Below are positions 9,001 through 48,234 of a DNA stretch of 64,000 bases, piece by piece. The notes under the pieces were generated by a model, which was not told where the DNA came from, did not search any database, and worked only from the letters and a program-made list of their open reading frames with translations. Origin of the DNA: Monocercomonoides exilis PA203 (lineage: Eukaryota > Protista > Preaxostyla); the NCBI GenBank assembly GCA_001643675.2, contig LSRY02000034.1:930001-994000 (forward strand), in the 5' to 3' direction. The translations under genes were made by a program, and so were the position numbers. The stretch's first letter is position 1; each line of letters begins with the position of its first letter.

Positions 9001-11775
9001 TTCAGATGCAAAAAGGGAGAGTAACAAGGAGAAAGAAAAGGAGAAAGGGAAAGAGAATGAAGAAGCGAGAAAAGGTAGTTCTGATGCGAAGGATCGAGTA
9101 GGATCGCCTTCCACTGCATCTGCACAGACATCCACAGCATCCACATCTTCTTCATCTACAGCAACTGGAGGAAGCAATTCCGCTTCTTCATCAGCCGGTC
9201 CGCAGGCCAACACAAGCGAGTCTGTCCGGATGAAGCTGCTGAGAAACAAGATCGGAGCACGAAAGGGAAACACGCTGCAGTCTGCTTCTTCGTCTGGCGG
9301 AAGCGAAGACTCAGGGGAGCATCACCAGGACCCGTGGTTCTTTGTGCTGAAGTACACACTCCCGTTCACTGTGCTTGTGTTTCTGATGCTGCTGGCGATC
9401 ACATTTGTGTTTGGGAACAAGCACTCACAGGACACGCAGAACCAGCTGCTGGAGCTTGGAGAGCTTGCCCGGGCAGCCACGTACACGACAGAGCTGGCGT
9501 CGTATTCGAAGCTGTTTGAGGCGCATTACTTTGGCAGAGCTTCGTTGGACCCGCTGTATTACCCGAACATCCGCCAGGTGAAAGCGAAGATTGCGTCGCT
9601 TGCGTCGCAGCTGCACACGATGGTGGTTGGCTGGCTTGCTCCGAAGGCTCCTGCGATTGCGGGAGATGAAGGGAATACAGCAATATCATCAATGTCATTA
9701 TCAGCATCATTGTCATCAGCAGCAGGAGAATTGGCATTGAAAGGGAAAAGGAGTGAGAAAGAGATAGGGAGAACAAGAATTCCAATGAAATCTCTATCAT
9801 CAATCAATTCCAATTCCAATTTCAAATACAATAACAAAGACTATACCAGATTCAATGCCAATTCCAATGCGAATCCACAGAATGATCTTCGAGCCGAGAC
9901 GAGTGAGTGGAGTGGGGCAGCACCAGGGAGCCAGACATACACAGCTCTGAAGGAGAAAGTGTCGTGGGACATCCACACAGTTGACCACATTTCTGTGGAT
10001 TGTGTGCACAACAGCGATTCTTCGCTGACGCTGGCGCAGCAGTGGATGGTGAGGGAGTCGTTTATCAATGCGATCATCAGATACATCACAGACCTGACGA
10101 CGCTGTGTGAGCTGAGCAAAGACAGGGCGACGAGTGTTAGTGGGAGTGGGAGTGAAAGTGAGGTGATGATGATGAAAGGGGTGAATGAAGAAGTAAATAA
10201 AGAAGTGAATAATGAAACGAATGAGGAGGTGAATGAAGGATTGGATGAGAAGAACAAAGAGAACGATGCAGAAATCACTGAAATCACTGAAATGGCAGAG
10301 AAAATGGATAAAATCAGGGAAATTGTGGACAATTCATTCAACGACACTTCGTTTGATCTGTTCGAATTTCCTTCCTTTGAAGAAATTCAATCAGATGACA
10401 ACTTTAAAAAGTACTTGACGAAAATAACACGTTCGAAAAGGAGTCCAAAAATGAGGTTTGCTGATAATCCTTCACATGCACATCATCCACGAGCGAAGAA
10501 GACAAGCAAACATTATCATAAATTGGATTCTTCTCCTTCTTCTTCCATTTCATCTCCTTCTTCATCATCTTCCTCCTCCTCCTCCTCCTCTTCAACTTCA
10601 TTTTCACCTTCAAACACAGCCACTTCATCCACTTCATATTCAGATCGATTTACAATTCCACTTCAAATGAATGATCAACCGCTCAATTCACTTCAATCTC
10701 AATCATCGTTATCAACATTATCATCTTCTCCTTCTCCTTCCTCCTCCTCTTCTTCCTCTCCACTCCACACAAATTCCTATCTCTCCAACATATATCTCTC
10801 TTCTTCTTCCTCTCCATCCCCCCACCACCCCAACCTCGACTCCTCTCTGAGCGACAGCGTTGTTGCCGACATTGTCACAGACACCGCCACAAACGGTCCC
10901 ACATCGCTTCTGCAGCGCTTCAAAGAGGAGATTGTGGATGTGATGAACAAGCACATGAACTCGAACCGGGCGACGCTTGTGTGTGCGATTGTGTGCGGGT
11001 TCTTCGGGTTTATGTTTATGGTGGTGTTTATTGTGGTTGTTTATGTGCTGCTGATGCGGCTGAACAGGCAGCGGAATTCGGCTCTATTTTTCTTCCTGGC
11101 GATGCGAAGGGATGTGCTGAAGGGGATTCAGAGGAGGCTGAACATCACAGAGGATGTGGAGAAGGGGATGGAAGAGGTGGAGAAGGAGGAAGGAGAAGAT
11201 GAAGGAGAAGATGAAAGGGAAGAAGGAGAAAGTGAAGAAGAATTTGAGTGGAGAGGGAAAAAGGAGAAGAAGTCGGGGAGAAACGGAGGGAAGAGGAATA
11301 AGCAGCATCAAAAGCACAAGAGGAAGGGGAAGAAAGGAGGAAGAGAAGGAGAAGGAGAAGAAGAGGAGGAGGAAGGAGAAGAGGGAGAAGGAAGAAGAAG
11401 AGAAGGAAGAGGAAAGAAGGAGTCGAATGCGATGAGCAAGCTGAAGAAGACGGTGCGAATTAGTGCGCTTGCAAAGACAGCACTGGGAAGGCAGCTGCTG
11501 TCAGTGATGTCAAACAAAGAGGAGGAGGAGAAGGATGAAGAAGAAGAAGAAGATAATGAAGAGGAAGAGGAAGAGGAAGAAGGAGAGAAAGAGAAAGCTT
11601 CAAAGAATGACAATAGAAAAGACAGTTCTGATGCAAATAATTCGAAGGAAAAACAACAACATTCAAAACCGAATGTGACATGTTCACCTTCTCCTGCTCC
11701 TTCTCCTTCGCTCGCAAGCACCTCTTCTTCTTCGTCTTCCTCATCGTCTTCCTCTTCTTCCACTTCTTCTACACT

Positions 11776-11806
<31 letters not shown>

Positions 11807-14116
11807 TCATCCTCTTCTTCTTCAAATGCAAATGATAAAATGCTTGAAGAGACGTCAAAATCTCACAAACAGACAAAACCCCCCAAACCACCTCAAACAC
11901 CCAAGTCATCCAATCCCTCCAAGCAGAATAAGCAAATAAAGTCCATAAAGCCAATGAAACCAATCAAACAAATAAAGCCAATGAAACCAATGAAACCATC
12001 CAATGAGCCAAATGATTCAGATCTCCTTGATGCCCGTCCTCTGCTCACCACGCGCACAACACTCACGCTGGCGACACAAGCACTCGAAGTGCTGCCGGAC
12101 AGCTCGGCTGCTGTGGCTGAGACACACATCTTCACTCCCCTGGCAGTGCCCTTGCCCACACGCCGGCGGAAGAAGAGGCATTTCCAGAATGCGGTGCCGA
12201 ACTCGACGATCGGGATGATCATTGTGCTGTTTGTGATACTCACCATTGCGCTGCTGGTGGTGTCGGCGTCTGTGTCTGTGTTCACAATTGTGGTGCAGCC
12301 GTGGCCAGCGCGCGTGGGGCTGTCTGGGATGAGGGCGATTGCTGCACAGGAGATCCACTTTCTGACAACACAGGCGATGGTCCCGAACAAACAGAGGCTG
12401 CCGCTGAATGCGACGAGCGTGAGGGCGATGGCGGAGGAGATGGAGAGGGCGATGGAGGCGATGGAGGCGAGGGAAGGGGAGGTGAGGGGGAGCATGAAGA
12501 GGGCGTATCGGTCGTTGAGGCAGACGGAAAGGTTGATGGAAGAGGAAGAGGAAAAAGAAAAAGAAGAGGAGAAAAGAAGAGGAAGAGAAGGAAGTTATTT
12601 TGTTGATAACAATTCTGTTGAAAAAGAGAATGGATTGTTGGAAAACACACAAAATGAGAATATTTCCACAGACGCTTCACAAGCTATGGATATCAATTCA
12701 ATCAATTCAATCACTTCATTACCATCTGAATCATCATCATCATCATCATCTTCTTCTTCTTCTTCTTCTTCTTCATTGTCGTCTTCTTCGTCTTGTTTTA
12801 TTTCCACAGGCACCTCATCGGACACTTATCTTTCGTCTTTTCGTTCTTTGCCTTCAGACAATTCTGAAGACGATTCACATCCCATTTCACATTCCACTCC
12901 ACACACTTCACTTACAAGTGAACAACAACAATCGCATTCTCTTTCTTCTCTTTCTTCTTCTCTTTCTTCCTCAACTTCTTCCTTTTCCTCTTCTTCCTCT
13001 TCCTCCTTCACCTCTTCCACCTCTGTCCCTTCCAACATTGTTGTTGAGCTGCGCACGACCGACGGCTGGAAAGGGCTGGAGCACATGTCGCCCGACCTGA
13101 GTGTGGTGATGGCGTCTTACAAGGCGATGGGGATGTATTTGAGGAACATCCACGAGCTCTGCCGCTTCGGCAAGGACAAAGGCCGAAAGAGCGCAGACTC
13201 TGTGCTGGACTCGGTGAACATTGTGGACAAAGACACGACGAGTGTGGAGGGGCTGTTTGCCGAGCTGTACAGGGCGTCCACGTGCTATCTGCTGGACAGC
13301 GCTGAGTGCAAAGAGAAGCCGAACAGGCTGCCCACGACGGCGGTGGACGAGGGTGTTCCTCTGTTTGGGATTGAGCTGCTGCTGCAGAGGGTGCTGAAGG
13401 CGGTGGAGGAGATCAGCAGCATCGGGGTGCAGGGCGGGGCGCCGTATGCGGTGGATGGAGGGCACCCGTCAGTGGTGATGGTCAACACGCTGCTGAGGGA
13501 GGATCTGAGGGACGGGCTGGAGAAGCTGACGCGGCAGCTGACGGAGCAGTCGGTGGGGACGATCAAGAGCCTGGAGGTGTGGATATTTGTGGTGTCGGCG
13601 GTGGATCTGGTGCTGATAGTGGCGGTGTTTTTCTACATCACGTTCCATGTGCAGTCGCAGCTGGACCATGTTGCGTTCAAGACGCAGCGGATTGAGGAGC
13701 TTGTGCCGATTGAGGAGACGATGGCGATCCGGTGGGCGAAGGCGTTCAATTTGGGGGAGCAGAAGCTGGATGTGAATCATCGGCTGCTTCTGGACAGTGC
13801 AGCGCAGCTGGTGGACGAGCTAATCAAAGGCGAGGACAAGGCAGTGAGGCAGGCGGTACCGAACATGCGGCAGCTGCTGCACGGGCATCTGAAGGCAGAG
13901 GAGAAGATCATTGTGGCTGTGCAGCACCCGCGGGGCCCGCTGCTGGTGAAGCGGATGAAGGAGTTTAATGCGAAGTTTGATGAGCTGATACGGTGCTACG
14001 ACGACTCGCTGGATGTTACGGAGTCGATGTCTGCGCTGTTCAACTATTTCATCGATGTCCACATCATGGAAGACAACAAGATTCTCCACGAATTCCTGAA
14101 AGAAAAAAGAATGTGA
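6008..14116 (+). CDS. Large polytopic membrane protein, TmcB/TmcC-like (N-terminal multi-TM block, TPR-like region) with a C-terminal hemerythrin-like domain; exons 6008-6100 and 6158-14116
   Basis: The 2627-aa ORF is extended by an in-frame exon across a GT-AG intron (6101-6157). N-terminal TM helices include VDC..C..FPEIECW. TPR-like YRALLESHPFSIPVLRGYANLM. The C-terminus reads W..FNLG..LDVNH..HLKAEE..HIMED. Confidence 0.75.
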
Positions 14117-16560: not shown

Positions 16561-17211
16561 TGTGAAAAGGATGGAAAAAAGGATAAAGAAGAAGAAGAAA
16601 AGGAATGCAAGTTAATAATCTGCTGCGCTTCATAAAGTGCACTTTTGAATTTATTTATATTTTAAATAATGAAATTGTTCAGGGTTTTTCAATTTCCCTT
16701 TATGAAGTTATTTAACCAAATTTAAGTCGCATCATCTGTGTTTTCTTCGATATAAACATGAAAATATTTGCGAAATTAATTTTCAACTCATAAACTTAGT
16801 TTTTCATATGTGTTTCATAACCTCAATTTGAAATATAATTGAAACATTTCCATTTCAAAATACAAAGATCAAATAATTTGAAAAATTGTATTAATTATTA
16901 TTTAACAAGCAATACAAAAAGCATCAATAATAATTATTGAAAAAAAACCTTTTTTAGCTTAATCGCAATGGATTTCAACATTAATTTGTATATAAATAGA
17001 CTTTATTTCAAATATATCCATTTTGCTTGTATTTAATTGGTTTATATAATATGTTGGATTTTTTAAAATTTCATCTTATGAAATAATTTGTTTGCTAATT
17101 TCATAAGATTTCAAAAAAGAAACATTGAAATAATTACAACTGATGTTTTCAAGCTGTTGCTTACCGATTCGATCAATGAACATATATTCTTGTTGCACAC
17201 ACTGAAAAATA

Positions 17212-18215
17212 TAGGGTGATTTTTTTATCAGGACATTTTTTTTAATCCGGACATTTTTTTTTATTGGCGTTTCTCAATAAATAAAAACTGGAAATAGAAA
17301 AAGCATATTGAACCAGGCTTGAATACGCATTAAATGTTCATACAAAAAATTTTTCTTTTCAATTTATGTTTTTGATGAAGATCTTGGGAATTTTAAATTT
17401 ATTTTTGATCATTTGTTTTGCCCATTTTGGACTATCTTTCTTTTTTTGTTTATTTTTAACAATAAGACCATGAAACATACATAAAGAAGTTTAATTATTC
17501 CAAATGTTTTATATTTTTCTGTATTTTTTCGTGAGTTTTTCTCATTTCATCGTTTTTGACAAAAATTATGAAAAATTGAAAATTTCTTATCTGTTACTAT
17601 ATATTTCGATTATATTTACAACATGCCATGTTAAAAAGATTAAAATACATGACATATTTAATTTGTTAGTTACACTAAATTAAATTAAAAATGAAACGAA
17701 CAAATATGTATTAATCAAAAACTGATTGATACAATTGTTGCAACAATACTTCACAAGGTTATAACCAAATAAAGACTTCATAAAAAAACTTTTCTTTTCA
17801 TAGACATCATTATAAATAACCTATAAACATCATATCTTGCAAAATTTTCAATTTTTCATAATTTTTGTCAAAAACGATGAAATGAGAAAAACTCACGAAA
17901 AAATACAGAAAAATATAAAACATTTGGAATAATTAAACTTCTTTATGTATGTTTCATGGTCTTATTGTTAAAAATAAACAAAAAAAGAAAGATAGTCCAA
18001 AATGGGCAAAACAAATGATCAAAAATAAATTTAAAATTCCCAAGATCTTCATCAAAAACATAAATTGAAAAGAAAAATTTTTTGTATGAACATTTAATGC
18101 GTATTCAAGCCTGGTTCAATATGCTTTTTCTATTTCCAGTTTTTATTTATTGAGAAACGCCAATAAAAAAAAATGTCCGGATTAAAAAAAATGTCCTGAT
18201 AAAAAAATCACCCTA
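17212..18215. mobile_element. Non-autonomous Tc1/mariner-type foldback element with ~374-bp TIRs
   Basis: TA|TAGGGTG...CACCCTA|TA. The arms 17212-17585 and 17842-18215 are near-perfect reverse complements around a ~256-bp spacer. No ORF. Confidence 0.85.
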
Positions 18216-18531
18216 TATTTTGTAAAAACTAATTGATCAAATGTTAAAATTTTAATTGCAATATTTCTTAATCACAAAAACTTAAATTTTTTTCGCTTCA
18301 AAATTAACAACTATCTTAATCAGGAAAATGAATTGCATTAATTTACAATGTGCACATTCGTTATAAACAATATTTCTATATTTACTGAAGATGACTATAT
18401 CATCGTATCTAACATTTCTCTTATCAGAAATTCTGTCCCACAATTGCATTTGATTTAAAATGATCTGATATTTCATTTAGAAAAAGGGTTCTTGATCAAT
18501 AAAAAACATCTCTCGATCATCACAAATCCAC

Positions 18532-21500
18532 ATGAGAAACGATGTTGATCCGATGAGTAATTGCGCTTCTGACAGATTGGAAATGAGCAAGTGGACAGAA
18601 TATAGCGGAACTTTTGGTGATAAAGATGGAAGAACAAAGGCAATGCATTATATCATTAACACCAAAACTGAACCTCCAGAAAGGATGAGGCACGATGTTA
18701 CTCTTGCTGATGATAACGGATGGACAATGGCAATGATATGGATAATATATATAAAAACAGAGCCACCGCAGTGGATGAGACACAAAGTTACATTGTGTGA
18801 TGTTCTAGGACAGACAATGGCCATGATATGGATTGCAAATGTCAAAACAGAGCCGCCAGAATGGATGAGGCACTATACTTCATTTACAGATGAGAATGGT
18901 GAAACAATGGCCATGCTCTGGATTGAAAATGTGAAGACAGAGCCACCAGAATGGATGAGACACGATATTACTCTTGTTGATGGCGAAGGACGCACAATGG
19001 TCATGTTATGGGTACAGAATGTTAATACAAAACCACCGAAGTGGATGAATTATGACAATACGCTTCGTGATGATGATGGAAGAACGGATGCAATGAATTG
19101 GGTTAAGGAGAAAAAAATTGAACCACCACAATGGATGAGACATGAAGTTACTCTTGCTGATAAATATGGACAGACAATGGCCATGTACTGGATTCGATAT
19201 GTGAAGACAGAACCACCAGTATGGATGAGACACGATATTACTCATGTTGATAGCGAAGGACGCACAATGACCATGCACTGGATTGCAAATATGAAGACTG
19301 AACCACCGAAGTGGATGAATTATGACAATACGATTAGAGATAAATATGGCAGAACAGATGCAATGAATTGGATCATGAAGAACAAAAATGAGCCACCAGA
19401 ATTCATGAGACACGATATTACTCTTGGTGATAAATATGGTAAAACAATGGCCATGATATGGATAGAAAATGTCAAAACAGAACCACCAGATTGGATGAGA
19501 CATGACAAAAAACTTACTGATAAGGAAGGACAGACAATGGCCATGTTCTGGATTGAAAATGTCAAAACAGAACCACCAGAATGGATGAGACATGATATTA
19601 CACTTGTTGATAACAACGGATGGACGATGGCCATGATGTGGATTTATCATGTCAAAGCAGAACCACCAGATTGGATGAGACATGATATAACGATTTCTCA
19701 AAAGGGTGAATGGACTATGGCAATGATATGGATTCATTTTATTCAAACAGATCCACCAGAATGGATGAGACATGACAAAACAATTGCTGATAGCAGTGGA
19801 CAGACAATGGCCATGTACTGGATTCAATATGTGAAGACAGAACCTCCGGAATGGATGAGACACGATATAACTCTTGTTGATGGAGAAGGAAGCACAATGG
19901 CCATGTACTGGATTCAATATGTGAAGACAGAACCTCCGGAATGGATGAGACACGATATAACTCTTGTTGATGGGGAAGGACGCACAATGGCCATGTACTG
20001 GATTGAAAATGTGAAGACAGAACCTCCAGAATGGACGAGATATCACATAACACTTTGTGATAAATATGGACAGACAATGGCCATGTACTGGATTCGATAT
20101 GTGAAGACAGAACCACCAGTATGGATGAGACACGATATTACTCATGTTGATAGCGAAGGACGCACAATGACCATGCACTGGATTGCAAATATGAAGACTG
20201 AACCACCGAAGTGGATGAATTATGACAATACGATTAGAGATAAATATGGCAGAACAGATGCAATGAATTGGATCATGAAGAACAAAAATGAGCCACCAGA
20301 ATTCATGAGACACGATATTACTCTTGGTGATAAATATGGTAAAACAATGGCCATGATATGGATAGAAAATGTCAAAACAGAACCGCCAGAATGGATGAGA
20401 CATGATATTTCAATAAAAGGAGACATTTGGCATCGAACAATGGCCATGTTCTGGATACAATATGTCAAAACAGAACCACCTGAATGGATGAAGCATGAAA
20501 TTACACTTGCTGATGAGTTCAGTTACACAATGGCCATGATATGGATTCAGTATGTTGAAACAGAACCACCAGATTGGATGAGGCATGATATTACACTTGG
20601 AAAAGGAAGATCCGGTACAATGGCCATGATATGGATTGAAAATATCAAAACAGGTCCACCAGAATGGATGAGACATGATATTACACTTGTTGGTAGCAGA
20701 GGAAAAACAATGGCCATGCACTGGATTGAATATGTGAAGACAGAGCCACCCAAGTGGATGAGGCATGACAAAACTCTTGCAGATAAGAATGGTGAAACAA
20801 TGGCCATGTACTGGATTGAAAATGTGAAGACAGAACCACCAGTATGGATGAGACATGGAATTACACTCGGAAAAGGAGAAAGTGAAACAATGGCTATGAA
20901 ATGGATTGAAAATGTCAAAACAGAACCACCAGAATGGATGAGACACGGAATTACTCTTGTAGATAACAGAGGACAGACAATGGCCATGCACTGGATTGAA
21001 TATGTGAAGACAGAGCCACCAGAATGGATGAGACATGATATTACAATAAATGGAGGTATTTTGGAACGAACAATGGCCATGTACTGGATTCGATATGTGA
21101 AGACAGAACCACCCGAATGGATGAGACACGATATTACTCTTGGTGATGAATATGGTAAAACAATGGCCACGACATGGATAGAAAATGTCGAAACTGAACC
21201 ACCAGAATGGATGAGACATGACAATACGATTAGAGATAAATATGGCAGAACAGATGCAATGAATTGGATCATGAAGAACAAAAATGAGCCACCAGAATTC
21301 ATGAGACACGATATTACTCTTGGTGATAAATATGGTAAAACAATGGCCATGATATGGATAGAAAATGTCAAAACAGAACCACCAGATTGGATGAGACATG
21401 ATATTACACTCGGAAAAGGAGAAAGTGGAACAATGGCCATGTTCTGGATTGAAAATGTCAAAACAGGTCCACCAGAATGGATGAGACATGACAAAACGCT

Positions 21501-22425
21501 TGCTGATAGCAGTGGACGGACAATGGCCATGTACTGGATTCAATATGTGAAGACAGACCCACCAGAGTGGATGAAACACGATATTACAATTAAAAATGGT
21601 TGGAGAAAACAGACAATGGCCATGTATTGGATTGAATATGTGAAGACAGAGCCACCAGAATGGATGAGACACGGAATTACTCTTGAAGATAACAGAGGAC
21701 AGACACAGGCCATGTATTGGATTGAAAATTTGAAGACAGAACCTCCGGAATGGATGAGACACGGAATCACTCTTGTAGATAACAGAGGACAGACAATGGC
21801 CATGTTCTGGATTGAAAATGTGAAAACAGAGCCACCAGAATGGATGAGACACGGAATAACGCTTGCTGATAAGGATGGATGGACAATGGCCATGTTATGG
21901 ATTCGATATGCGAAGAAAGAACCACCAGAATGGATGAGACACGATATTACTCTTTCCGATGAGAATGGTGAAACAATGGCCATGATATGGATTGAAAATG
22001 TCGAAACAGAACCACCAGAATGGATGAGACATGACAAAAAACTTACTGATAAGGAAGGACAGACAATGGCAATGCACTGGTTCGCAATATTCAAAACAGA
22101 ACCACCCAAGTGGATGAGGCATAGTAAAACAGTTGCTTATAAAGAAGGAAAAACAATGGCCATGCTCTGGATTGAATATGTGAAGACAGAGCCACCCAAG
22201 TGGATGAGGCATGACAAAACTCTTGCAGATAAGAATGGTGAAACAATGGCCATGTACTGGATTGAAAATGTGAAGACAGAACCACCAGTATGGATGAGAC
22301 ATGACAAAGAAATTGAAGGTGGGATTTGGGGACGAACAATGGCCATATATTGGATTGAATATGTCAAAACAGATCCACCCAGGTGGATGAGGACAAAACG
22401 ACCCAAGTGGATGAAGAAAGATTAA
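18532..22425 (+). CDS. Intronless 1297-aa tandem-repeat protein: 42 copies of a 30(31)-aa ankyrin-like unit DxxGxTMAMxWIxxVKTEPPxWMRHDxTLx
   Basis: Uninterrupted ORF with 90-nt periodicity; repeats counted by hand. Confidence 0.9.
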   Translation: MRNDVDPMSNCASDRLEMSKWTEYSGTFGDKDGRTKAMHYIINTKTEPPERMRHDVTLADDNGWTMAMIWIIYIKTEPPQWMRHKVTLCDVLGQTMAMIWIANVKTEPPEWMRHYTSFTDENGETMAMLWIENVKTEPPEWMRHDITLVDGEGRTMVMLWVQNVNTKPPKWMNYDNTLRDDDGRTDAMNWVKEKKIEPPQWMRHEVTLADKYGQTMAMYWIRYVKTEPPVWMRHDITHVDSEGRTMTMHWIANMKTEPPKWMNYDNTIRDKYGRTDAMNWIMKNKNEPPEFMRHDITLGDKYGKTMAMIWIENVKTEPPDWMRHDKKLTDKEGQTMAMFWIENVKTEPPEWMRHDITLVDNNGWTMAMMWIYHVKAEPPDWMRHDITISQKGEWTMAMIWIHFIQTDPPEWMRHDKTIADSSGQTMAMYWIQYVKTEPPEWMRHDITLVDGEGSTMAMYWIQYVKTEPPEWMRHDITLVDGEGRTMAMYWIENVKTEPPEWTRYHITLCDKYGQTMAMYWIRYVKTEPPVWMRHDITHVDSEGRTMTMHWIANMKTEPPKWMNYDNTIRDKYGRTDAMNWIMKNKNEPPEFMRHDITLGDKYGKTMAMIWIENVKTEPPEWMRHDISIKGDIWHRTMAMFWIQYVKTEPPEWMKHEITLADEFSYTMAMIWIQYVETEPPDWMRHDITLGKGRSGTMAMIWIENIKTGPPEWMRHDITLVGSRGKTMAMHWIEYVKTEPPKWMRHDKTLADKNGETMAMYWIENVKTEPPVWMRHGITLGKGESETMAMKWIENVKTEPPEWMRHGITLVDNRGQTMAMHWIEYVKTEPPEWMRHDITINGGILERTMAMYWIRYVKTEPPEWMRHDITLGDEYGKTMATTWIENVETEPPEWMRHDNTIRDKYGRTDAMNWIMKNKNEPPEFMRHDITLGDKYGKTMAMIWIENVKTEPPDWMRHDITLGKGESGTMAMFWIENVKTGPPEWMRHDKTLADSSGRTMAMYWIQYVKTDPPEWMKHDITIKNGWRKQTMAMYWIEYVKTEPPEWMRHGITLEDNRGQTQAMYWIENLKTEPPEWMRHGITLVDNRGQTMAMFWIENVKTEPPEWMRHGITLADKDGWTMAMLWIRYAKKEPPEWMRHDITLSDENGETMAMIWIENVETEPPEWMRHDKKLTDKEGQTMAMHWFAIFKTEPPKWMRHSKTVAYKEGKTMAMLWIEYVKTEPPKWMRHDKTLADKNGETMAMYWIENVKTEPPVWMRHDKEIEGGIWGRTMAIYWIEYVKTDPPRWMRTKRPKWMKKD

Positions 22426-23597: not shown

Positions 23598-25660
23598 GTA
23601 GATAGAAATTTAAATAATAAAAATTAATTGATATGTATTTATTCTTTATGAAATATAACAAATGCGGTGAATATATATATATTTTTATTTTTTTAATGTT
23701 CATTTTCAATTTTCAAATGAACAATGGGTTGTGCCGTGATCATTTTTTTATGGTATAAATTCCACGGCATTCACGTCACTGCCTGTCACTGACTTAATTC
23801 AATTCAATAAGTCATTTTTGAAAATGTTTATGTTTTTTTCAGGTTGAAACTATTCTTTTATAAAATTTTTAACTTTTTGAAGTCAGACAATTATTGTAAG
23901 AAAATAATTTTTTATTTTTTTCTGAATTTTTCTTTTATTTTTTTTTATTCATTCAAATTATAAGAGCTTGTTTTTCACAAACAGCTGTAACAAACTAATG
24001 AGATGCTTCTCAAAACATAAACAGTTGTTTGAGTTTGGACCCTGAGTTTCAGGAGCGAATGGCTGTTCGGTGGAAGGTGGTGTTTTCATCTTCTATGGCG
24101 GGGATCAGGACAGAGCGGTTAGCTTACAAAGCGCTGGCATTTGCGGAGGAGCATCTGGACAACGAGGCGAAGAAGAAGTATCATGCGGTGGTGTGCCCTC
24201 TGATATTCACGAGTGGGAGCTGGATGCAGGGAAAGCAAAAGAAGCTGTTGTTGGTGGCTGAGGAGTGCGTTATGATGGGGACAGAGCAAAGCAAGAGTTA
24301 GTCGGATGCGATTAGGGGGTGAGAGGGAGTGTGGAGAGGAAGAGCGTGGGGGCAACAAGTTAGTCCTTTCTTCCGGCGCAGAGCTGTGAGATTGATCATC
24401 AATGGGAATATACAGCTAGAGTTCGAATGGAAGGAGCTGCGATTAGCTGTTTTCACTTCCTAAAACCTGTGTGTGGAGAAAATTGAGGAGAGCGGATTGT
24501 GACACACCGTTTTGATCATGCAAGGAAGATCACCGAAAGTCAGGGAAACAGGAGGATCGGACAGGAGGTGTTTGAAAAGAGCGAAGCAGAAGAGGAGGTG
24601 ATGGAGCGGGTTGGAGGAAAAGGTGAAAAAGGGAAGGAATGGGAGGAGAAAGAGGAAGGATGAAAGTATTATGAGACATCAGCGATTGTGCCGAAGGGAA
24701 AAGGGGAAGGGGCAGGCAGGAGGCAGAGTCTGCATGAAAGGTGTTGGTGGCCGAACATCCTGTTTATTGGGATGAGAGCGGTGGAGAAGGTGGTGCTGTT
24801 AGTGACTGTGGAGTGCTGTGTGTGGCAGCAGTGACAGAGTGGAAGATCAAAGCGGAGGAAGTGGAAATGGAAGTGGAAGATGAAGAGGAATGAGAGGACG
24901 AAGCAGAGTGAGGGCTGTGGAGAAATCTGCTGCTGCAGTGATTTTTTTTCAAACAAATTCATAATAAAGTGTTTTTAATTTATATTCATTGATAAGAATT
25001 CTCTCATGTCAATAACACACAGAATAACATATCAAATGTTTTTTTTTGTTTTAATAAACAATTGTTAAATTAAAATGTTAAATCGTCTTAAGAGAATTGC
25101 AAAAAAACAATATGAAAAATATGATAATTATGTCGATTTTTGTAAAAAAAAAACTTTTTTAACATGAATAATCACTCAGATTTAAAGATTAAAAAAAATG
25201 AATAAAAATAAAAACGAGACACTGAAAATAAAGCTTCTAGAACATTTTAAAATGAATAGGTAAATCTTGATGGAAATTTCCATAGAATGATATGACTTCT
25301 GTCGAAGTGAATAATAGTACTTAAATATAACAAGATTTTTTAAAGGTTTGTTGTGGAAAAGCTATTTTTTCTTAACAATAAGAAATGTTCAAAATTGATT
25401 TATGTTATTGATTATAATCAATTATTTATTAATATAAATAAGTTTGCTTTTATCAAAAAAAAAAGTGCCGGGCACTGACTGACGGGAGCCCGACTTTTTG
25501 AAGGTGATGCAGATGTTCACTTTGTTCTTTTGTTTTTGTGATTATTATGAGCAATGTTTGTGTTGTTGTTTTCTACAAATTATGAAGATTTCGAAACAAA
25601 ATTAACACAAAAAATAAAATCTAGACGAAACATTAAACACTTGTTTCCTTTCATAAAAAA

Positions 25661-27005
25661 AGAGATATGGTATATCAGCTATGGATCCATCTCGATGAGG
25701 TCTATCAGTATTATCGATTTATGAATATCTTGTGGTTGTTATCATCTTGTATAATAAGTTGAATAGGCAATGATAATAAGATAGAGATCGATAATTATTG
25801 CTGATACTCTTAGGGGTTTCTCATGATTAGATATTCAGTGATGTTCTATATAGATGGAGTTATTGATAAGTGTAATCGAGATATATCCATAGCTGATATA
25901 CCATATCTCCTAGGAGGAGAATTAGCTAAAAGATTAACCAAAGTGTCGAACGGAGACGTAAGTCTCCTGAGGAACGTTGTTCCGAAATTGGTAAATTAAT
26001 GGTGAATTTGTGTGAAAATTGATGTTTTCGTTGATGAAATACATGATTTGAACACGTTTGTTTGTAATAACAGGTGTGTGTGTGTTAAATCTGTTGGTGT
26101 GATCGTTGGTGTGATCGTAAATAAAAATAATTGATTTTGTTTTTTTGTTTTATCGTAAATGGGTCGGAAGAAGATATACGCAACTGTGGAAGAAGCGAAA
26201 AAGGCTCAACAGAAACAAATTAAACAGTTTCAGGAAAAACGTAAAGAAGAAACTAAAGATTACAACGAACATGTAACTGAGAAACAGAAGAAGTTGATTA
26301 AGATATTGAGGAGAAAGGTTATCGAAAGTGATGAGCTGTTAGATGAGTTGATGGAAAAAGTTAGTGGTTATTGTTTGAACAAGCTTGATTGTGATAAATG
26401 TGTTAATTAATGAAATATAACTGACTACACACGTTTGTTGTATGGTTTGTTGAATCAAACAGTGGTCACGATGACGTTATAGTTGATTGCCAACATCAAT
26501 ATTTTTACTTGAAAAAGTGGTAAAACGGTAGTCAGGATACCGAATTGTGGCAATATCGAGATGCTTGGGGAAGGGAAATATTGAGTTAAATCTCCGTGCT
26601 GGAAGCGTAGTCAGGTAGTCAGGTAGTCAGGATCTTTTAAGTTCATCTGAAAAGAGCTGCCAACATGCCATTTCTGCCAACATGAGCAATTTACCCCTAA
26701 TTTACCATGATTTTGAGGTGTTTTATTTATTTTCGACTGTGTTGTCATTTTGCCACATTGCCACATGGAATCATTGATGGTATATAACAAGTGGCATACA
26801 CTTTTTGTAACGTTAGTTGTTCCAAACAGAGGTTTTGCCTGGACAGGATAAGCTGGTCAGGTAATGTGGGTGATGCTGTGGCTGGGAAATATTGAGTTAA
26901 ATCTCCGAGCTTTTCACCTGCACAGGGTGCACAGGGTGCACAGGATGCACAGGATAAATTAAATTCTCTAAAATATGTGGGCAAACGGGCAAACTGAGCA
27001 AAGTG
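25661..27005 (+). repeat. Left terminal inverted repeat (1,345 bp)
   Basis: No mismatch noticed against the right arm by eye; imperfect similarity continues ~20-30 bp further inward. Confidence 0.95.
26159..26410 (+). CDS. 83-aa basic/coiled-coil protein encoded in the left TIR
   Basis: ATG-initiated MGRKKIYATVEEAKKAQQKQIKQFQEKRKEE..., with an identical copy in the right TIR. Confidence 0.7.
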   Translation: MGRKKIYATVEEAKKAQQKQIKQFQEKRKEETKDYNEHVTEKQKKLIKILRRKVIESDELLDELMEKVSGYCLNKLDCDKCVN

Positions 27006-27151
27006 GGCTAAATAAATTTAATGTGAAAATTAACTGTTTCCGTTCTTTTTCGACATTAACTTCAACATCATCTTCCCCGTAAATTTCGTTTCAAAAATAA
27101 ATCTGTTTAAATAAAAATTTGTTTTTTTCATTTGTATTAAAATTGGCAACC

Positions 27152-29413
27152 ATGAGCAAAAGCATAATCGAATTAATCGGTGAAAACAGTCAAACGGTTC
27201 AACTCCTTATTAGCATGGAAGAAAAAACATTGAATGAAAGAATTGATTCAAACGTTGTTGATTTATTCAATTATCAAAAGCATGATGGAGGCAGTGGCTC
27301 TGTTGTTACTGGAAGAGCAGTGTTGGTGAACGAAGTGTCAAATTCAACTGTTATCGACATTGATATTAACAAATCGTTTGACGATGAGTCCAAACAATCT
27401 GTTAGATCAAAGATATTAAACAAACTTGACGAAGACGATATCGTTGTTCAAACAGCTTCTGGGGGATTACACATTTATGCAAATACCGATGACTTTTACG
27501 CCAACTCCAACAGAATGATTAAATGTTACACTTGCGATGAATTTGATGTAGATATCATGACATCGTTGGACGAAAGCAAACGATCATTAATTGTATTACC
27601 AAACAGCAAAGTGCGTAAGGATCATCGATCAAAGACAAATGTTTATCAGCTTGTTAGAGGTTCGTTTGACTCAGCAATTACACGAAATGTTAATGAAATA
27701 TTGAATGATCTCTCATTGAAACTGTTCATAAAAACATCTGACGAAATAGAGTATATCGTTAAATTAGATGACGACAATGACAATATCAGTGACGAATTAG
27801 CTAATGTTTTAGTCAACGGGTTGGAGTGTTCTGTCATACATAACGATGGGGGTAATATGCCAATCAACAGAGAAGTCACGTTTTTCACACTGTTTCAAGC
27901 AATTAATTCATTACCGAACGAGTATGTCGAATTAGCTTACGACAGAGTACTAAACAGTGACAATTTGACAGCGAACGCTCGTGATAACTATTTCATTGCA
28001 AAACAACGATACAGATGTTTGAGATCATCGCCATTTGTGTTAGTTAAGATGTACAAAATATGGAATAATGACTATTACACAAACGAGATATTACCGTTAC
28101 TGAGAAACGACACAAATATTGTTAAACCATTAGATATGTCTGAATCGTTTTCCATGACAGACATTCGACGAAAAGCTGAGACAAAACAATATAAAAACGC
28201 TGATGATGTTATTAGTGATTTGTCGAGAGTTATTCGATTTATAGAAACAGGAGCGATGTATATACAAAAAGATTTCAATATATTCGATAAACGTTGGGGG
28301 ATAACATTTATAACAGACACTAATATGACACGTAACTTAAAGATGATTAAACTGTGGAAAACTGAACATCAAACAACAACAGCATATGACATTCTACTGT
28401 CTTGTTTGTCGAAACTAACATTGCAAGGTGTTATGTTTAACGCAAAAGATACAGCTAATGCATTCTCGATATTTCAAGGTTTCAAGTACAATTTACGTGA
28501 AAGTTTCGATATGGAAACAATCTCAATGTTTCTGGACTTTGTTCGTGAGGTAATTGCTGATTCCAACAACGATGTATATGAATATGTTATTAACTGGATT
28601 GCCAACATTGTTCAACATCCTGGAATAAAAAATGAAACAGCATTGATATTGAAAGGTATTCAAGGTATTGGGAAAAACAGATTCACAGATGTTATATCTG
28701 AACTATTCGCTGGTTATTCCAGTCGAAATGTTACAGAAATTGGAGAATTGACTGGAAACTTCAACTCTGTTGTTGAAAGCAAAATGTTGATTGTTTTGAA
28801 TGAACTGAAAAATTGTGGAGACGATAGACTTGCAAATTTCAATGCGTTGAAGTCGGTAATAACAGAAAACATTATTAGAATGAACGAGAAGAATCAACCT
28901 CGTAGAACCGCTGAGAATGTAGTTAATTTTATATTTGTGACAAACCACGCATTTCCAGTCAAGATTGAAACAGGTGATAGGAGATATGTTGTTCTTGCAT
29001 GTAATGGTAAATACAAGAACAATTTCGATTATTTCAAACAATTATGTTCTTCATTTACGACAGAGTTTTATGACAATTTGCTCACATATTTGATGAACAA
29101 AGACCTTTCATCATTTAAAGTTAGATCAATACCAATGACAGAGGCTAAAATGGATATTATAGAAGCGAGCAAAAGTCCGTTGGAAATGTGGATATGCAAT
29201 CATTACGACGAGCTATGTGTTGGAATGAATTGTACAGATGCTCTCCTCTGTAAGCCTGTTGAAATCAAAGATAGAAACTTCCAACTGCAACTGATAGATA
29301 AATGTGAGCATAAACAGAAATCTATAAATGGAAAACGTTCATGGCATTATATATTGAAAGATGAATGCAAACTGTTGTACAAACAAACTGTATCTGACGA
29401 TGAGGATAATTAA
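27152..29413 (+). CDS. AEP primase-polymerase (Prim-Pol) fused to a D5/NrS-1-like superfamily 3 helicase, 753 aa, intronless
   Basis: N-terminus: VIDID, VQTASGGLHIY, DVDI, IVLPNS. C-terminus: YVINWIANIVQHPG, Walker A GIQGIGKN, Walker B LIVLNE, motif C FVTNH, Arg finger GDRRY. First ATG at 27152. Confidence 0.88.
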   Translation: MSKSIIELIGENSQTVQLLISMEEKTLNERIDSNVVDLFNYQKHDGGSGSVVTGRAVLVNEVSNSTVIDIDINKSFDDESKQSVRSKILNKLDEDDIVVQTASGGLHIYANTDDFYANSNRMIKCYTCDEFDVDIMTSLDESKRSLIVLPNSKVRKDHRSKTNVYQLVRGSFDSAITRNVNEILNDLSLKLFIKTSDEIEYIVKLDDDNDNISDELANVLVNGLECSVIHNDGGNMPINREVTFFTLFQAINSLPNEYVELAYDRVLNSDNLTANARDNYFIAKQRYRCLRSSPFVLVKMYKIWNNDYYTNEILPLLRNDTNIVKPLDMSESFSMTDIRRKAETKQYKNADDVISDLSRVIRFIETGAMYIQKDFNIFDKRWGITFITDTNMTRNLKMIKLWKTEHQTTTAYDILLSCLSKLTLQGVMFNAKDTANAFSIFQGFKYNLRESFDMETISMFLDFVREVIADSNNDVYEYVINWIANIVQHPGIKNETALILKGIQGIGKNRFTDVISELFAGYSSRNVTEIGELTGNFNSVVESKMLIVLNELKNCGDDRLANFNALKSVITENIIRMNEKNQPRRTAENVVNFIFVTNHAFPVKIETGDRRYVVLACNGKYKNNFDYFKQLCSSFTTEFYDNLLTYLMNKDLSSFKVRSIPMTEAKMDIIEASKSPLEMWICNHYDELCVGMNCTDALLCKPVEIKDRNFQLQLIDKCEHKQKSINGKRSWHYILKDECKLLYKQTVSDDEDN

Positions 29414-29464
29414 TAATAACAGAAATGTCACCGTTATATTTTATCACATTAAATGTATTTTGCT

Positions 29465-30809
29465 CACTTTGCTCAGTTTGCCCGTTTGCCCACATATTTT
29501 AGAGAATTTAATTTATCCTGTGCATCCTGTGCACCCTGTGCACCCTGTGCAGGTGAAAAGCTCGGAGATTTAACTCAATATTTCCCAGCCACAGCATCAC
29601 CCACATTACCTGACCAGCTTATCCTGTCCAGGCAAAACCTCTGTTTGGAACAACTAACGTTACAAAAAGTGTATGCCACTTGTTATATACCATCAATGAT
29701 TCCATGTGGCAATGTGGCAAAATGACAACACAGTCGAAAATAAATAAAACACCTCAAAATCATGGTAAATTAGGGGTAAATTGCTCATGTTGGCAGAAAT
29801 GGCATGTTGGCAGCTCTTTTCAGATGAACTTAAAAGATCCTGACTACCTGACTACCTGACTACGCTTCCAGCACGGAGATTTAACTCAATATTTCCCTTC
29901 CCCAAGCATCTCGATATTGCCACAATTCGGTATCCTGACTACCGTTTTACCACTTTTTCAAGTAAAAATATTGATGTTGGCAATCAACTATAACGTCATC
30001 GTGACCACTGTTTGATTCAACAAACCATACAACAAACGTGTGTAGTCAGTTATATTTCATTAATTAACACATTTATCACAATCAAGCTTGTTCAAACAAT
30101 AACCACTAACTTTTTCCATCAACTCATCTAACAGCTCATCACTTTCGATAACCTTTCTCCTCAATATCTTAATCAACTTCTTCTGTTTCTCAGTTACATG
30201 TTCGTTGTAATCTTTAGTTTCTTCTTTACGTTTTTCCTGAAACTGTTTAATTTGTTTCTGTTGAGCCTTTTTCGCTTCTTCCACAGTTGCGTATATCTTC
30301 TTCCGACCCATTTACGATAAAACAAAAAAACAAAATCAATTATTTTTATTTACGATCACACCAACGATCACACCAACAGATTTAACACACACACACCTGT
30401 TATTACAAACAAACGTGTTCAAATCATGTATTTCATCAACGAAAACATCAATTTTCACACAAATTCACCATTAATTTACCAATTTCGGAACAACGTTCCT
30501 CAGGAGACTTACGTCTCCGTTCGACACTTTGGTTAATCTTTTAGCTAATTCTCCTCCTAGGAGATATGGTATATCAGCTATGGATATATCTCGATTACAC
30601 TTATCAATAACTCCATCTATATAGAACATCACTGAATATCTAATCATGAGAAACCCCTAAGAGTATCAGCAATAATTATCGATCTCTATCTTATTATCAT
30701 TGCCTATTCAACTTATTATACAAGATGATAACAACCACAAGATATTCATAAATCGATAATACTGATAGACCTCATCGAGATGGATCCATAGCTGATATAC
30801 CATATCTCT
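29465..30809 (-). repeat. Right terminal inverted repeat (1,345 bp)
   Basis: Reverse complement of 25661-27005. Confidence 0.95.
30060..30311 (-). CDS. Second identical copy of the 83-aa TIR-encoded protein
   Basis: Identical translation to 26159-26410. Confidence 0.7.
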   Translation of the reverse strand: MGRKKIYATVEEAKKAQQKQIKQFQEKRKEETKDYNEHVTEKQKKLIKILRRKVIESDELLDELMEKVSGYCLNKLDCDKCVN

Positions 30810-31149
30810 AAGAAATGAGTTTGTTGACATGAAAAACGAGAAATAAAAGAGCCAATATTGCATATAACATTCTTCATTAATTGTGAAAAAATATAAATGA
30901 AAAGTTTTAGCAAATCTTTTGAAAAGCAGTATTCTTTCAATTGGAATAAGAAAAAAATATGTTAGAATTTTTCTCACATTTTTTATTTTTATTATTGGAC
31001 AAAAGAAGGCAAAGAAAAACATCGGAAACAAGATGAAAAATCATTTAAATAACAAATATTATTGATATATACACAATAAGATTGTTTATTGACTTTTATT
31101 GAATTTTGTCAACTCTTTGAAATTTTGAAAAATACCAAACTTTCGACTT

Positions 31150-40239: not shown

Positions 40240-41270
40240 TTGTCAACTTAATCTGAATTGTTTCAATTGTTACAACAAAAATTATTCAAATTGAGAAATT
40301 TTGCATTCAAAAAAATAAAATTTGCATTCATAATAATAATTTTAGCAAACAAAATGAGAACTTTTGCGTTCAAAATTGAAATTTTGCAAACAAATTTATA
40401 ATTTTTTCTAACGAAATAATAATTTTTGAATTCGAATTAATAATTGTTGAAAACCTAACAAAATTTTGTTCACTCTCTCACGAAATTTTGTGAAAATCAT
40501 TTTTTTAACATTTGAATCGGAAATTATTTTATGTAGCTTTTGCAGTTTGTGCAAATAATCCCTGACAAGATCAATATCTCAATAACAGCATGAAGGAAAA
40601 TTCTGATAATTTTCCTCAAAATATATCTCATCAAAACAAACTCACGTGACATACAAGACTTTCAGGATAGCTTAGCTTGAGCTCTGAAAAAATAATATTG
40701 ACAATTTTGGCAAAACTGAATTTAGAATTTTACAGAAATTTTCTAAATTATATTTTCAGAGCTCAAGCTAAGCTATCCTGAAAGTCTTGTATGTCACGTG
40801 AGTTTGTTTTGATGAGATATATTTTGAGGAAAAGTATCAGAATTTTCCTTCATGCTGTTATTGAGATATTGATCTTGTCAGGTATTTTTTGTGATGTCCG
40901 GTATTTTTTGCACAAACTGTATTTTCATGTGCGTTAAAAAAATTTTTGAAATGTTTTATATTTCCTGAAATTTTTAATAATTTCATATAATTTTTATTCA
41001 TATGATAACATTAGATATTTTCATTTCGAATGCAAAAATTTTTATTTCGTTTGATATTTTTTCATTTCGAACGCAAAAATTATTAATTTGAATGAAAAAT
41101 TATTCTTTTGAATGAAAATATTATTAATTCGTTAGCAAAATTATAAATTCGATTGCAAAAATTCTCATTTGGGTCATTTTTTTTGAAAAGTCGCAAACGT
41201 TTAACTGATCTGAAAATCAGATCAAAAATGATCAAAAAATGTTGATCATTCCGTTTCCATTATATATTGC
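40240..41270. repeat. Older degenerate foldback with inverted ~21-bp tandem arrays hosting the MITE
   Basis: tttgcattcaaaa..-type units at 40280-40450 are mirrored at 41020-41170. A related end appears inverted at ~46590-46690. Confidence 0.5.
40543..40919. mobile_element. 377-bp Tc1/mariner-type MITE
   Basis: CAGTTTGTGCAAA...TTTGCACAAACTG followed by TA (the left flank is TG). Internal arms ~40562-40690 and ~40753-40882 are almost perfect inverted repeats. Confidence 0.8.
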
Positions 41271-46150: not shown

Positions 46151-46744
46151 GTTATTAGCTTCGAATTTGTCAAGTATGAAAAAATGAATAATTTTATAAC
46201 AATTATTAAATATAACATTCATATAAAAGCTAAATGAAAACCTTTTGATAAGTATAATTTTCATCTTTATCAAACTTGTGGGAGTAATTTACGCAAATTT
46301 TAAAATTCCAGGCACATTCTGTGCAAAAAAATTTTTTAATCAAATAAGAATTTGATTTATCTACGAATCTCAGAATTTTGAAGATAGAAAATCGAAACAC
46401 ACCTTGATCATTTCATTGACAAACAATTGTAAAGTGTTTCAATCAAGTGAAACTCTTTTTCATCGAAAAAATGATATTTAAATTTTGATCAAAAAAATTG
46501 ATACATAATTATTTGAAAAAAAATATATCATCTCATTAAGAAGTTTGTTATGACCCAGCAAACATCGCCGTTAAAGTTTGATATTTTCATTTGTATAATG
46601 GTAACGGAGTGTTTTTTATTAACTTTCATGGGATGAATTTTTGATCTGTTGCGACTTTTCAAAAAGAATTACCCATTTTGAATAATTTTGGCATATTCAC
46701 AGAGAACGGGGCAGTTTTGATCTGACCCAGTATTTTTTTATTTT

Positions 46745-46918
46745 AAGGGTTAAAATTCCAAAATAATCACTGTATTAATTGCTTGGTTTAGGTTTTAGGG
46801 TTAGCGTAACAGATCTTGCGTTTAGGGTTATGTTCCCGCTCTTCTTTTTAGGGTTAGCACTCAAAAAAACTTGATCTTTTTTGGATTTTTAGGGTTAGGG
46901 TTTAGCCAGGTTTAAGTT
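46745..46918 (+). repeat. Cluster of telomere-type TTAGGG/TTTAGGG motifs (interstitial)
   Basis: tttaggttttagggttag, tttagggtta, ttttagggttag and ttttagggttagggtttag, all on one strand. Confidence 0.7.
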
Positions 46919-46938
46919 GAGTTATAAGAAAGAAAGCT

Positions 46939-47037
46939 GGGCTTTGGCTCGAGTAGCGTAAGCGGTAGCTACCTCGACCATTGATATTCCGTTGGTCAAA
47001 GGTCGGGGGTTCGACTCCTGCCAAAGCTCTTTTTTTC
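46939..47037 (+). ncRNA. Putative Pol III small RNA (tRNA-derived or vault-RNA-like)
   Basis: A-box TAGCGTAAGCGG and B-box GGTTCGACTCC. A 10-bp terminal stem GGGCTTTGGC/GCCAAAGCTC is followed immediately by an oligo-T run. It does not fold into a canonical cloverleaf. Confidence 0.6.
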
Positions 47038-48234
47038 TGTGTTTTTTATTATTATTTTCATTGAAATTTTTTTGCCCCGTTCTCTGTGAATATACCATAA
47101 TTTTTTTGGTGTAACTTATTATTTGTAAGAAAAATTTTAATTCAATTTCTTTGGGAAAAATAATGAACCAATTTTTAGCATTTTTCAAATATTTCTTGAA
47201 AATTATTATGAAACAGCTATTTAATTGAATTACAATCATCAACACAAATAACTATTCACTGTAAAATTCTGCGTACTCACCATGTTTATTCATATTTTTT
47301 TTTTTTTTGAGACATCAATTGAGAATCTGCACCTGTTCATTTTGAGTGCATATCTATTAAGGAATATGTGAGATTTCATAAAGCTAAACAGTTGAACCGA
47401 GACAAAAACAGACATCAAAATAATAAATTCAAATTTAAAAATATCAAATTTCACTCTTTTATTTTCAAAAGTGAAATAATCATTCAGTTGTGTGCAATTT
47501 GAACAGCTGAAGATTTAAATCCCAAAAGCAAAATAGAATCAAACACATTTCAAAATTTTAAATTTGCGCAATAAAAACATAAAAATTATTGATTATGAAA
47601 TTCATAATAACAAATGCACCTCAAACAACAAATGGGACAGAATTTTTTCTTTTATGAAAAAAACCATGTATTGTTCCAAACTTATTCTGCATTCTAGTCA
47701 TAATGTTTATAGTCCAATGAAACAAAAAAAGGAATTGAAAACCATTCCAAAATAAATGTTTATTTTGAGTTTAAGAAACAATTCAATATAAAAAGAAATA
47801 TTTGGAAAAGGAATCGAAAATGAGCGACAAAGATTAATTTTTGTATTTGCAAATATGAATAATATGAAAACAAACATAATTGAATTGTCTGAGTGACATT
47901 TGAAGGTTTGTATTGATGAGCGATATTTTGTTAGAATAAGTTATAGCTAAATAAAAAAAATTAATCATTCAAACGGAAATTGAAAGTGAAAGCGACAATT
48001 TAGGAGGCACAGAATTCAATATTTAATTCAGGAAATGAAAAGAAGAAAAAGAAGAAGCTGAAAGCGGCGAATAAAAAAAAGGTTTAAACATTGCAAAATA
48101 ATGGAGAAGGAGAATCACAACTTATTTGGCTTTTTGTCTTTCTTTATCTCCTTCTTTTCTCTATCTTCTTCTTTCATAAGATGCCTCACGAATATTATCA
48201 GAAATTGCATTGAGATAATACCATTGGTGCTTAA

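Follow-up and report, generated by a model that had tools for sequence, protein, structure and literature searches.

A putative capsid-less mini-replicon with fold-back ends and one Prim-Pol/helicase gene in a chromosome of Monocercomonoides exilis

Introduction

How are the ends of Polinton-like elements completed when a protein-primed polymerase is lacking? Hairpin priming has so far been proposed as an answer from sequence only. A locus of the oxymonad Monocercomonoides exilis PA203 raises this question in a very small format. It lies in a 64-kb stretch of contig LSRY02000034.1 (positions 930,001 to 994,000), which is called the window here and to which all coordinates refer. The initial annotation of this DNA had claimed that both termini of an element with inverted repeats form branched hairpins of about 248 nt, i.e., Y- or T-shaped single-strand telomeres or origins, which could solve end replication without a terminal-protein polymerase. 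In the following it is discussed which parts of this proposal hold, what kind of element is bounded by these termini, and how it might be replicated.

Results

Layout of the element and its target site

The element has a length of 5,149 bp (25661-30809), and its ends read AGAGAT..ATCTCT. Half of it consists of two terminal inverted repeats (TIRs) of 1,345 bp each (left, 25661-27005, plus strand; right, 29465-30809, minus strand), which are perfect up to the first mismatch at 27006 and enclose a spacer of 2,459 bp. The left and right flanks are different, unique sequences with no long match elsewhere in the window, and the neighboring genes are eukaryotic (CFAP65-like and IQCH-like). The TIR length is inside the range of 100-1,500 bp given for Polintons, which are described to generate duplications of 5-8 bp, usually 6 bp (PMC10748475). 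For vertebrate Mavericks, (AG)3//(CT)3 or (AGT)2//(ACT)2 ends are reported, together with 6-bp duplications (PMC8097293). The ends of the element match (AG)3 at five of six positions, and they are adjacent to a possible 6-bp target duplication, AAAAAA on the left (25655-25660, plus strand) and AAGAAA on the right (30810-30815, plus strand). The two copies agree at five of six positions, although the TIRs do not contain a single mismatch in 1,345 bp, and equally good duplications occurred at a level of 0.08-0.12 in draws from AT-rich parts of the window. The ends, with this motif and 6-base duplication, are near-Maverick in character but could be due to chance at a level of about 0.1. Duplications of 8-11 bp were not found around the element, the best match being six of eight.

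Searches for other signals were negative. No structured RNA was found between 25400 and 31000 (zero Rfam matches at E values up to 1), no tRNA genes were found, and a scan for bacterial promoters and terminators yielded nothing above shuffled sequences, with models that are bacterial and ill-suited to a eukaryotic host. The comparison of the TIR with phages gave only five chance matches (E 0.4), and the 18-nt end pattern had no match in viral contigs.

The window contains several further inverted repeats. A gene-less long inverted repeat with a foldback-like structure (48220-50416; 950-bp arms, 99% identity, 297 nt apart) is unrelated to the element, a MITE-like unit has perfect arms of 380 bp that are 256 nt apart (17206-18221), and a near-perfect palindrome has 164-bp arms (94%) with a 12-nt spacer (40552-40891). 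Two units are MITE-sized, one with 43-bp arms (95%) at a distance of 199 nt (2458-2742) and one with 33-bp arms (91%; 46681-47105). Because such units of similar size are present, MITE-like ends are common in this region. Two long reading frames of the window were also noted, a 1,297-aa ORF (18532-22425, plus strand) with about 40 tandem 30-aa repeats (TEPPEWMRHDITL..TMAM.WI) and no whole-domain Pfam match, and an open frame of 2,652 aa (6158-14116, plus strand) containing TPR repeats of the TmcB type and, at the C terminus, a weak match to hemerythrin.

A single large gene encodes a predicted Prim-Pol/SF3 helicase

The spacer carries exactly one intact large gene (27152-29413, plus strand), which encodes a protein of 753 aa with an AEP Prim-Pol domain, a helical domain, and an SF3 helicase domain (DUF5906, D5/NrS-1-like; Pfam E value 1e-19). 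In a model of the full protein (pLDDT 86) the C-terminal part matches the NrS-1 helicase with an E value of 2e-19. The model of residues 1-320 (pLDDT 91) matches pRN1 ORF904 (Z 9.8, rmsd 3.5, 146 aligned residues) and the NrS-1 Prim-Pol (Z 7.9, rmsd 4.2, 136 aligned residues), with Foldseek E values of 3e-5 to 1e-3 to these two proteins. The sequence identity in the structural matches to NrS-1 and pRN1 ORF904 (PDB 6K9C, 6A9W, 3M1M) is 12-20%. Four residues of a catalytic type, D69, D71, H107, and D134, do not vary among 49 aligned sequences. The protein is thus predicted from the models to be a primase-polymerase-helicase with a pRN1/NrS-1-like fold. The domain ahead of the SF3 helicase is an AEP Prim-Pol and not an HUH nickase; among the matches listed for the N-terminal model no nickase fold was prominent, and geminivirus Rep appeared only at an E value of 0.1.

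In the ORF inventory of the element and with Pfam, genes for a polymerase B, an integrase, a packaging ATPase, a nickase, a resolvase, or a capsid protein were not recognized, and the same is true for a parvovirus-type nickase and a Streptomyces-type terminal protein (Tpg/Tap). There is no further unassigned ORF of more than 112 aa and no space for a capsid ORF. A K/E-rich ORF of 83 aa lies in the left TIR (26159-26410, plus strand) and is mirrored in the right TIR (30060-30311, minus strand), and no credible Pfam match was obtained for the 13 additional short ORFs that were scanned. The 83-aa ORF shares 88% identity with M. exilis MONOS_17995 across 88% of its length and has 12 weaker matches (E values 4e-6 to 5e-4), but no assignment in Pfam, PHROG, or the ESM Atlas (no Atlas match at 0.9 or above). 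An integrase or transposase was also not found in 30 scanned frames of the 77 stop-to-stop frames of at least 130 aa in the window.

Relatives of the gene and links to Mavericks

The 753-aa protein has 94 homologs, and the named ones are from T. vaginalis, Histomonas, and M. exilis. The homolog of T. vaginalis is 59% identical and belongs to a cluster of 198 members. A primase gene has been reported for 91.8% of 1,705 copies of the class-3 Mavericks of T. vaginalis (PMC12289875), and the T. vaginalis homolog P0003 presumably lies within such a TvMav3. In a tree of 90 sequences (FastTree; matches under 590 aa were left out) the protein pairs with P0075 of M. exilis with a support of 0.998. The deeper links to Maverick-borne copies have supports of only 0.16-0.27, and therefore the tree gives no direction of descent.

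The search of genome contigs confirmed one of 29 stretches, a Maverick-like contig without termini. From metagenomes, none of 130 stretches was confirmed in a first scan and two of 307 in a second scan, both on short contigs without element ends, and a gapped Prim-Pol motif had no match in viral contigs. The available DNA of two JGI relatives (L013 and L014) contains neither a long inverted repeat nor an exact array, and the flanks of L013 are unrelated. The neighbors of a relative with 52% identity (L010) are DUF4108, which is known from TvMav3, as well as an A32-like ATPase and an ORF of 837 aa. Read by eye, this ORF resembles a family-B polymerase; it has no Pfam match and no relatives in viral contigs. 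This Maverick-like contig (L010/L012, G001:C84, 9,384 bp) is part of a bacterial gut bin, of which it is likely a protist-virus contaminant.

Among 84 closer matches there are 19 Logan-only contigs, 16 of which exceed the gene by 92-259 nt, compared with 197 nt for the spacer of the element itself. Contigs ending less than 260 nt beyond the gene in total are expected if repeats bracket the gene. This argument is weak, because transcripts with short UTRs and a search favoring near-full-length proteins would give the same pattern.

The termini are predicted to fold back as one simple stem

The terminal unit of 248 nt (left, 25662-25909, plus strand; right, 30561-30808, minus strand) consists of a 35-bp stem and a weakly structured, GATA-rich loop of 178 nt. 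The arms 25662-25696 and 25875-25909 form 33 Watson-Crick pairs in 35, with mismatches at 25687-25688. Reverse-complementing the right unit gives exactly the left one, so that both are the same isomer, and the strand starting at the terminus is the one that allows the G-T pairs. In all three respects the initial annotation was correct, and its suggestion to compare the folding with shuffled controls also gave a clear result: for the whole 248 nt, z scores of -6.94 and -6.25 were obtained for DNA and of -7.64 for RNA, and none of 200 shuffles was as good in any of the three tests. All of this folding signal comes from the outer stem. At either end of the element the stem reaches right up to the terminus, and after a gap of 6 nt its diagonal regains pairing for eight bases (25703-25710 with 25861-25868, seven Watson-Crick pairs and one G-T pair). 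At the base of the stem lies a perfect 10-bp palindrome, CTCCTAGGAG (25907-25916), a candidate nicking or binding site. GATA/TATC words occur 16 times in the unit, in both orientations, which corresponds to 6.5 per 100 nt versus 1.2 in the rest of the element.

The first 18 bases occur four times in the window (0.03 expected), always in the two terminal units. There are no solo copies of the 248-bp unit in the 64 kb, and a target duplication of its own was not found (0-4 matches at lengths of 2-10 bp). Because the TIR identity extends 1,096 bp further, the unit is part of one replicated end and not a separate insertion.

The interior of the terminal unit behaves differently. The four short helices described for a first inner arm (25703-25806, plus strand) are indeed present, i.e., 25703-10/25799-806 and 25738-45/25770-77 with seven Watson-Crick pairs and one G-T pair each, 25711-18/25787-94 with eight, and 25726-31/25778-83 with six Watson-Crick pairs. 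However, the branched fold that they had been proposed to build is no better than shuffled sequence. When the outer stem was kept and the inner 178 nt were shuffled (preserving 2-letter or 3-letter composition, as DNA and RNA, on both strands), the z scores ranged from -0.93 to +0.87 in all eight tests, and 22 to 123 of 150 shuffles were as good. The inner 178 nt alone gave z scores of -1.25 (plus strand) and +0.13 (minus strand) as DNA and of -1.10 and -0.64 as RNA, and a fold-back score based on Watson-Crick pairs only was equaled by 50, 54, and 84 of 150 shuffles. The segment of the alleged weaker second arm around 25828-25848 (25808-25874) folds with z scores of +0.85 to +1.75. When arm 1 was excised post hoc (25700-25810), z scores of -2.99 (DNA) and -3.16 (RNA) were found for the plus strand, with two and one of 300 shuffles as good, and of -0.31 and -1.97, respectively, for the minus strand. 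The pair probabilities of its helices are 0.74-0.96 on the plus strand and 0.44-0.90 on the minus strand. The bases 25703-25710 pair equally well with 25861-25868 as with their proposed partner in arm 1, and the richness in GATA/TATC leads to alternative pairing registers. Furthermore, the stronger inner fold is that of the 5'-terminal strand and not of the 3' strand that would prime, where pair probabilities of at least 0.9 are limited to the outer stem and a single 8-bp helix. Tightly packed multiple palindromes of the Streptomyces type are absent, as only one stem is significant. Because the inner loop folds like shuffled sequence and the second arm is without support, the supported object is a simple fold-back and not a Y or T, and the branched telomere was rejected as a candidate on the basis of the in-context shuffles.

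Iteron-like arrays inside the inverted repeats

Two iteron-like modules are located deeper in the left TIR. Module 1 (26560-26631, plus strand) consists of a 41-bp repeat followed by 3.1 copies of GTAGTCAG; in module 2 (26872-26944, plus strand), 2.9 copies of TGCACAGGG come after a second occurrence of this repeat (88%). Their mirror copies are found at 29526-29910 (minus strand), and the nearer array begins 113 nt past the helicase stop codon. In an exact-array scan of nine distant IMG/VR relatives, seven had tandem arrays of 8-10-mers no farther than about 1 kb past the matched helicase stretch; considering that L002-L004 are near-copies, this corresponds to five of seven distinct ones. One sequence is cut short (L005), one has no arrays (L009), and the same scan found no arrays elsewhere in these loci. 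By analogy to SaPI and P4, from which the iteron role is derived, such arrays may act as iterons for this replicase family, and the origin is likely located at the arrays deeper in the inverted repeat. Inverted repeats of PLVs have been proposed as origins for primase-helicases in a study that also notes many homologs in T. vaginalis (PMC11296320).

Some observations on related loci and sites can be added. In L001-L004 and L006-L008, arrays of 9-10-mers, often in inverted sets, lie downstream of distant NrS-1-type helicase genes. The arrays of L010 are upstream, within a small ORF, and L013 has short imperfect GGGACAC / TGTCCCA repeats (2960-3077) after the primase-helicase gene, at the contig end. 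An NrS-1 primase site, TTTGGTTA, was noticed post hoc 25 nt inside each stem (30528-30535, mirrored at 25935-25942). Its strand and direction would prime inward, but it occurs five more times in the window, NrSPol is reported to use GTG sites too (PMC8718748), and the placement near the stems is probably due to chance.

Discussion

A mini-replicon with simple fold-back ends

The reading that we favor, with a probability of about one half, is that the element is an integrated, capsid-less mini-replicon that originated from a metamonad Maverick primase module and has simple fold-back ends. Its replication could begin at the tandem 8-9-mers, which lie about 0.9-1.3 kb inward from each end: bound there, the helicase would open the DNA, and the Prim-Pol would then prime and copy it. 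For the related NrSPol, de novo priming with dNTPs and processive synthesis together with helicase and SSB have been described (PMC8718748). At an end that has become single-stranded, the 3'-terminal 35 nt could fold back onto 25875-25909 and serve as a primer or as a protected end. A terminal-protein polymerase would not be needed, because the folded 3' end would supply primer or protection. The integrated sequence of arm, loop, arm, and body would represent the opened form of such a hairpin end. For the opening of the hairpin and for integration, host nucleases and repair might be recruited, or a Maverick integrase might use the AG..CT ends in trans. These two steps, which depend on outside enzymes, are the weakest of the proposal, and the cycle would be incomplete on its own because the element encodes no nickase, resolvase, or integrase. 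Helper elements are plausible, because capsid genes of the Maverick type have been reported from the oxymonad Streblomastix (PMC10120064).

Of the initial idea of hairpin-based end replication, the fold-back end, the Prim-Pol/SF3 protein as the only large gene, and the missing terminal-protein polymerase were retained, while the Y/T shape was lost, and the origin is more likely situated at the internal arrays than at the terminus. Several points count against the favored reading. As a duplex in a long panhandle the unit has -288 kcal/mol versus -36 to -41 kcal/mol as a hairpin, so a single strand would prefer the panhandle, and the mini-replicon is known from one copy. The target duplication and the end motif are imperfect, other small inverted-repeat units of similar size are present in the window, the two JGI relatives show neither long inverted repeats nor exact arrays, and the deeper nodes of the tree that lead to Maverick-borne copies have low supports.

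Alternative explanations

An unlikely alternative is that the 248-bp unit represents the end of a transposon or a captured MITE, and that the entire element is a non-autonomous DNA transposon of the foldback or Pack-MULE-like kind, which is moved by a transposase encoded in the host genome and carries a Maverick primase as cargo. The 35-bp repeats of the unit, its size, and its layout are MITE-like, similar small units and gene-less elements with long TIRs (48220-50416, 17206-18221) are present in the window, and the GATA/TATC words, 16 in number and oriented both ways, are reminiscent of subterminal binding sites. The start GAGATA, which is similar to that of the maize Mutator TIR, can also be counted here. 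Yet neither the unit nor, at 8-11 bp, the element is surrounded by a duplication, the 1,096 bp past the unit are mirrored just as perfectly, a solo copy is missing in the 64 kb, the gene is intact, and the arrays in the TIRs are like those beside the phage relatives.

Rather improbable is the possibility that the ends are plain ends of a Maverick-type integrase, and that the stem is the footprint of a one-off template switch, which was copied to both TIRs and has no role today. The ends near (AG)3//(CT)3, the near 6-bp duplication, and a loop structure no better than chance would fit, and accidental annealing is indeed given as an alternative by the authors of the Halocafeteria study discussed below. 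This explanation would not predict that the stem is flush at both ends and that pairing resumes on the same diagonal for eight bases, and terminal palindromes are described to recur with non-pPolB replicases in unrelated elements.

The branched single-strand telomere, with functional inner arms and flip/flop isomers as in densoviruses, has become very unlikely. The outline of the element is like that of JcDNV (6,032 nt, 547-nt ITRs, 130-nt Y hairpins, SF3 helicase; PMC3738899), and arm 1 alone reaches a z score of about -3 on the plus strand, but all eight in-context controls are non-significant, arm 2 is absent, the G-T pairs favor the non-priming strand, an HUH nickase or capsid ORF is lacking, and both ends of the one copy are the same isomer. 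Even less probable is a fold-back chimera of assembly or amplification, because, in spite of the 100% identity of the TIRs, the two flanks are different and unique, both junctions are sharply defined and have a near target duplication, the spacer has exactly one intact gene, and the stem contains two mismatches and a 178-nt loop.

Significance

A prior description of this element was not found in a full-text literature search, which left most subscription journals and Repbase outside its coverage. A hairpin in a TIR has precedent, but an element so reduced, standing alone in the chromosome of a metamonad and with so large a loop, appears to be undescribed. Because the 5 kb of the element combine putative iterons and putative fold-back ends with one large gene, hairpin priming and AEP-SF3 mobility become testable, and both ideas could be addressed with one purified protein and short templates. 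It is tempting, though doubtful at present, to extend the mini-replicon to a free-standing eukaryotic class with one Prim-Pol/SF3 gene, long TIRs, iterons, and fold-back ends, but without capsid, integrase, nickase, or terminal protein, which would be widespread in gut metamonads. If true, this class would be the stand-alone "moonlighting replicase" predicted by a 2026 preprint and would offer a one-gene system for testing hairpin priming by AEPs. The element may also put a name to some of the many unclassified repeats of oxymonad genomes. For M. exilis these are given as 28.9 Mb in an article whose main text makes no mention of Mavericks or inverted repeats (PMC8767320). The claim of a branched telomere adds nothing to the significance of the element.

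Comparison with known systems

In the NrS-1 polymerase and pRN1 ORF904, too, a single chain unites Prim-Pol, helical domain, and SF3 helicase, but the former belongs to a phage and the latter to a circular archaeal plasmid. Parvoviruses make use of an HUH nickase and the host polymerase. They have capsids, tight Y hairpins, and flip/flop isomers, whereas the element has a Prim-Pol and no supported branch. The densovirus JcDNV is similar in its size of 5-6 kb, the long ITR ending in a fold-back, and the SF3 helicase (PMC3738899). Linear replicons of Streptomyces share internal initiation and a folded 3' end, a geometry that is proposed here for the element, but their telomeres are described as tightly packed palindromes that are patched with the aid of terminal proteins, in contrast to one stem and no recognized Tpg/Tap (PMC4513846). 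Therefore, the likeness to parvoviral hairpins and Streptomyces telomeres that had been drawn fails on the enzymes and on the hairpin shape. Transpovirons are likewise small, capsid-less linear elements of the virophage-Polinton network, but they are reported to have six to eight genes and an SF1 helicase and to be tied to mimiviruses, unlike the one AEP-SF3 gene in a protist chromosome (PMC3671162).

TvMav3 elements are related by the primase gene, and near-(AG)3 ends and a near 6-bp duplication are seen here; they differ by lengths of 15-26 kb, TIRs of 100-130 bp, and 10-14 genes, including polymerase B, integrase, ATPase, and capsid-like genes (PMC12289875). Terminal palindromes have been described for virophages (subtypes 1, 2, 5, and 6) and a PLV (subtype 4) of Halocafeteria seosinensis, for which hairpin priming was proposed from sequence, with accidental annealing as the alternative (bioRxiv 10.64898/2026.07.28.741278). 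As in M. exilis, where the target duplication is a possible one, the palindrome is at the extremity of the TIR next to the target duplication and is combined with a non-pPolB replicase. However, the Halocafeteria elements are complete viruses that encode capsid proteins and RVE integrases, and their palindromes are compact (subtype 5, 52 nt; the gap limit of the search was 10 nt) compared with the loop of 178 nt. Repeat-bracketed AEP-SF3 replicases without integrase are also reported from Polisuviricotina, including one element that is solely an AEP gene, and autonomous movement has been proposed for them (bioRxiv 10.64898/2026.10.13.758929). Those modules are located inside or in tandem with viral genomes, or are devoid of flanking repeats (Bodo saltans virus), whereas the element of M. 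exilis stands alone in a host chromosome, with perfect 1.3-kb TIRs and fold-back ends.
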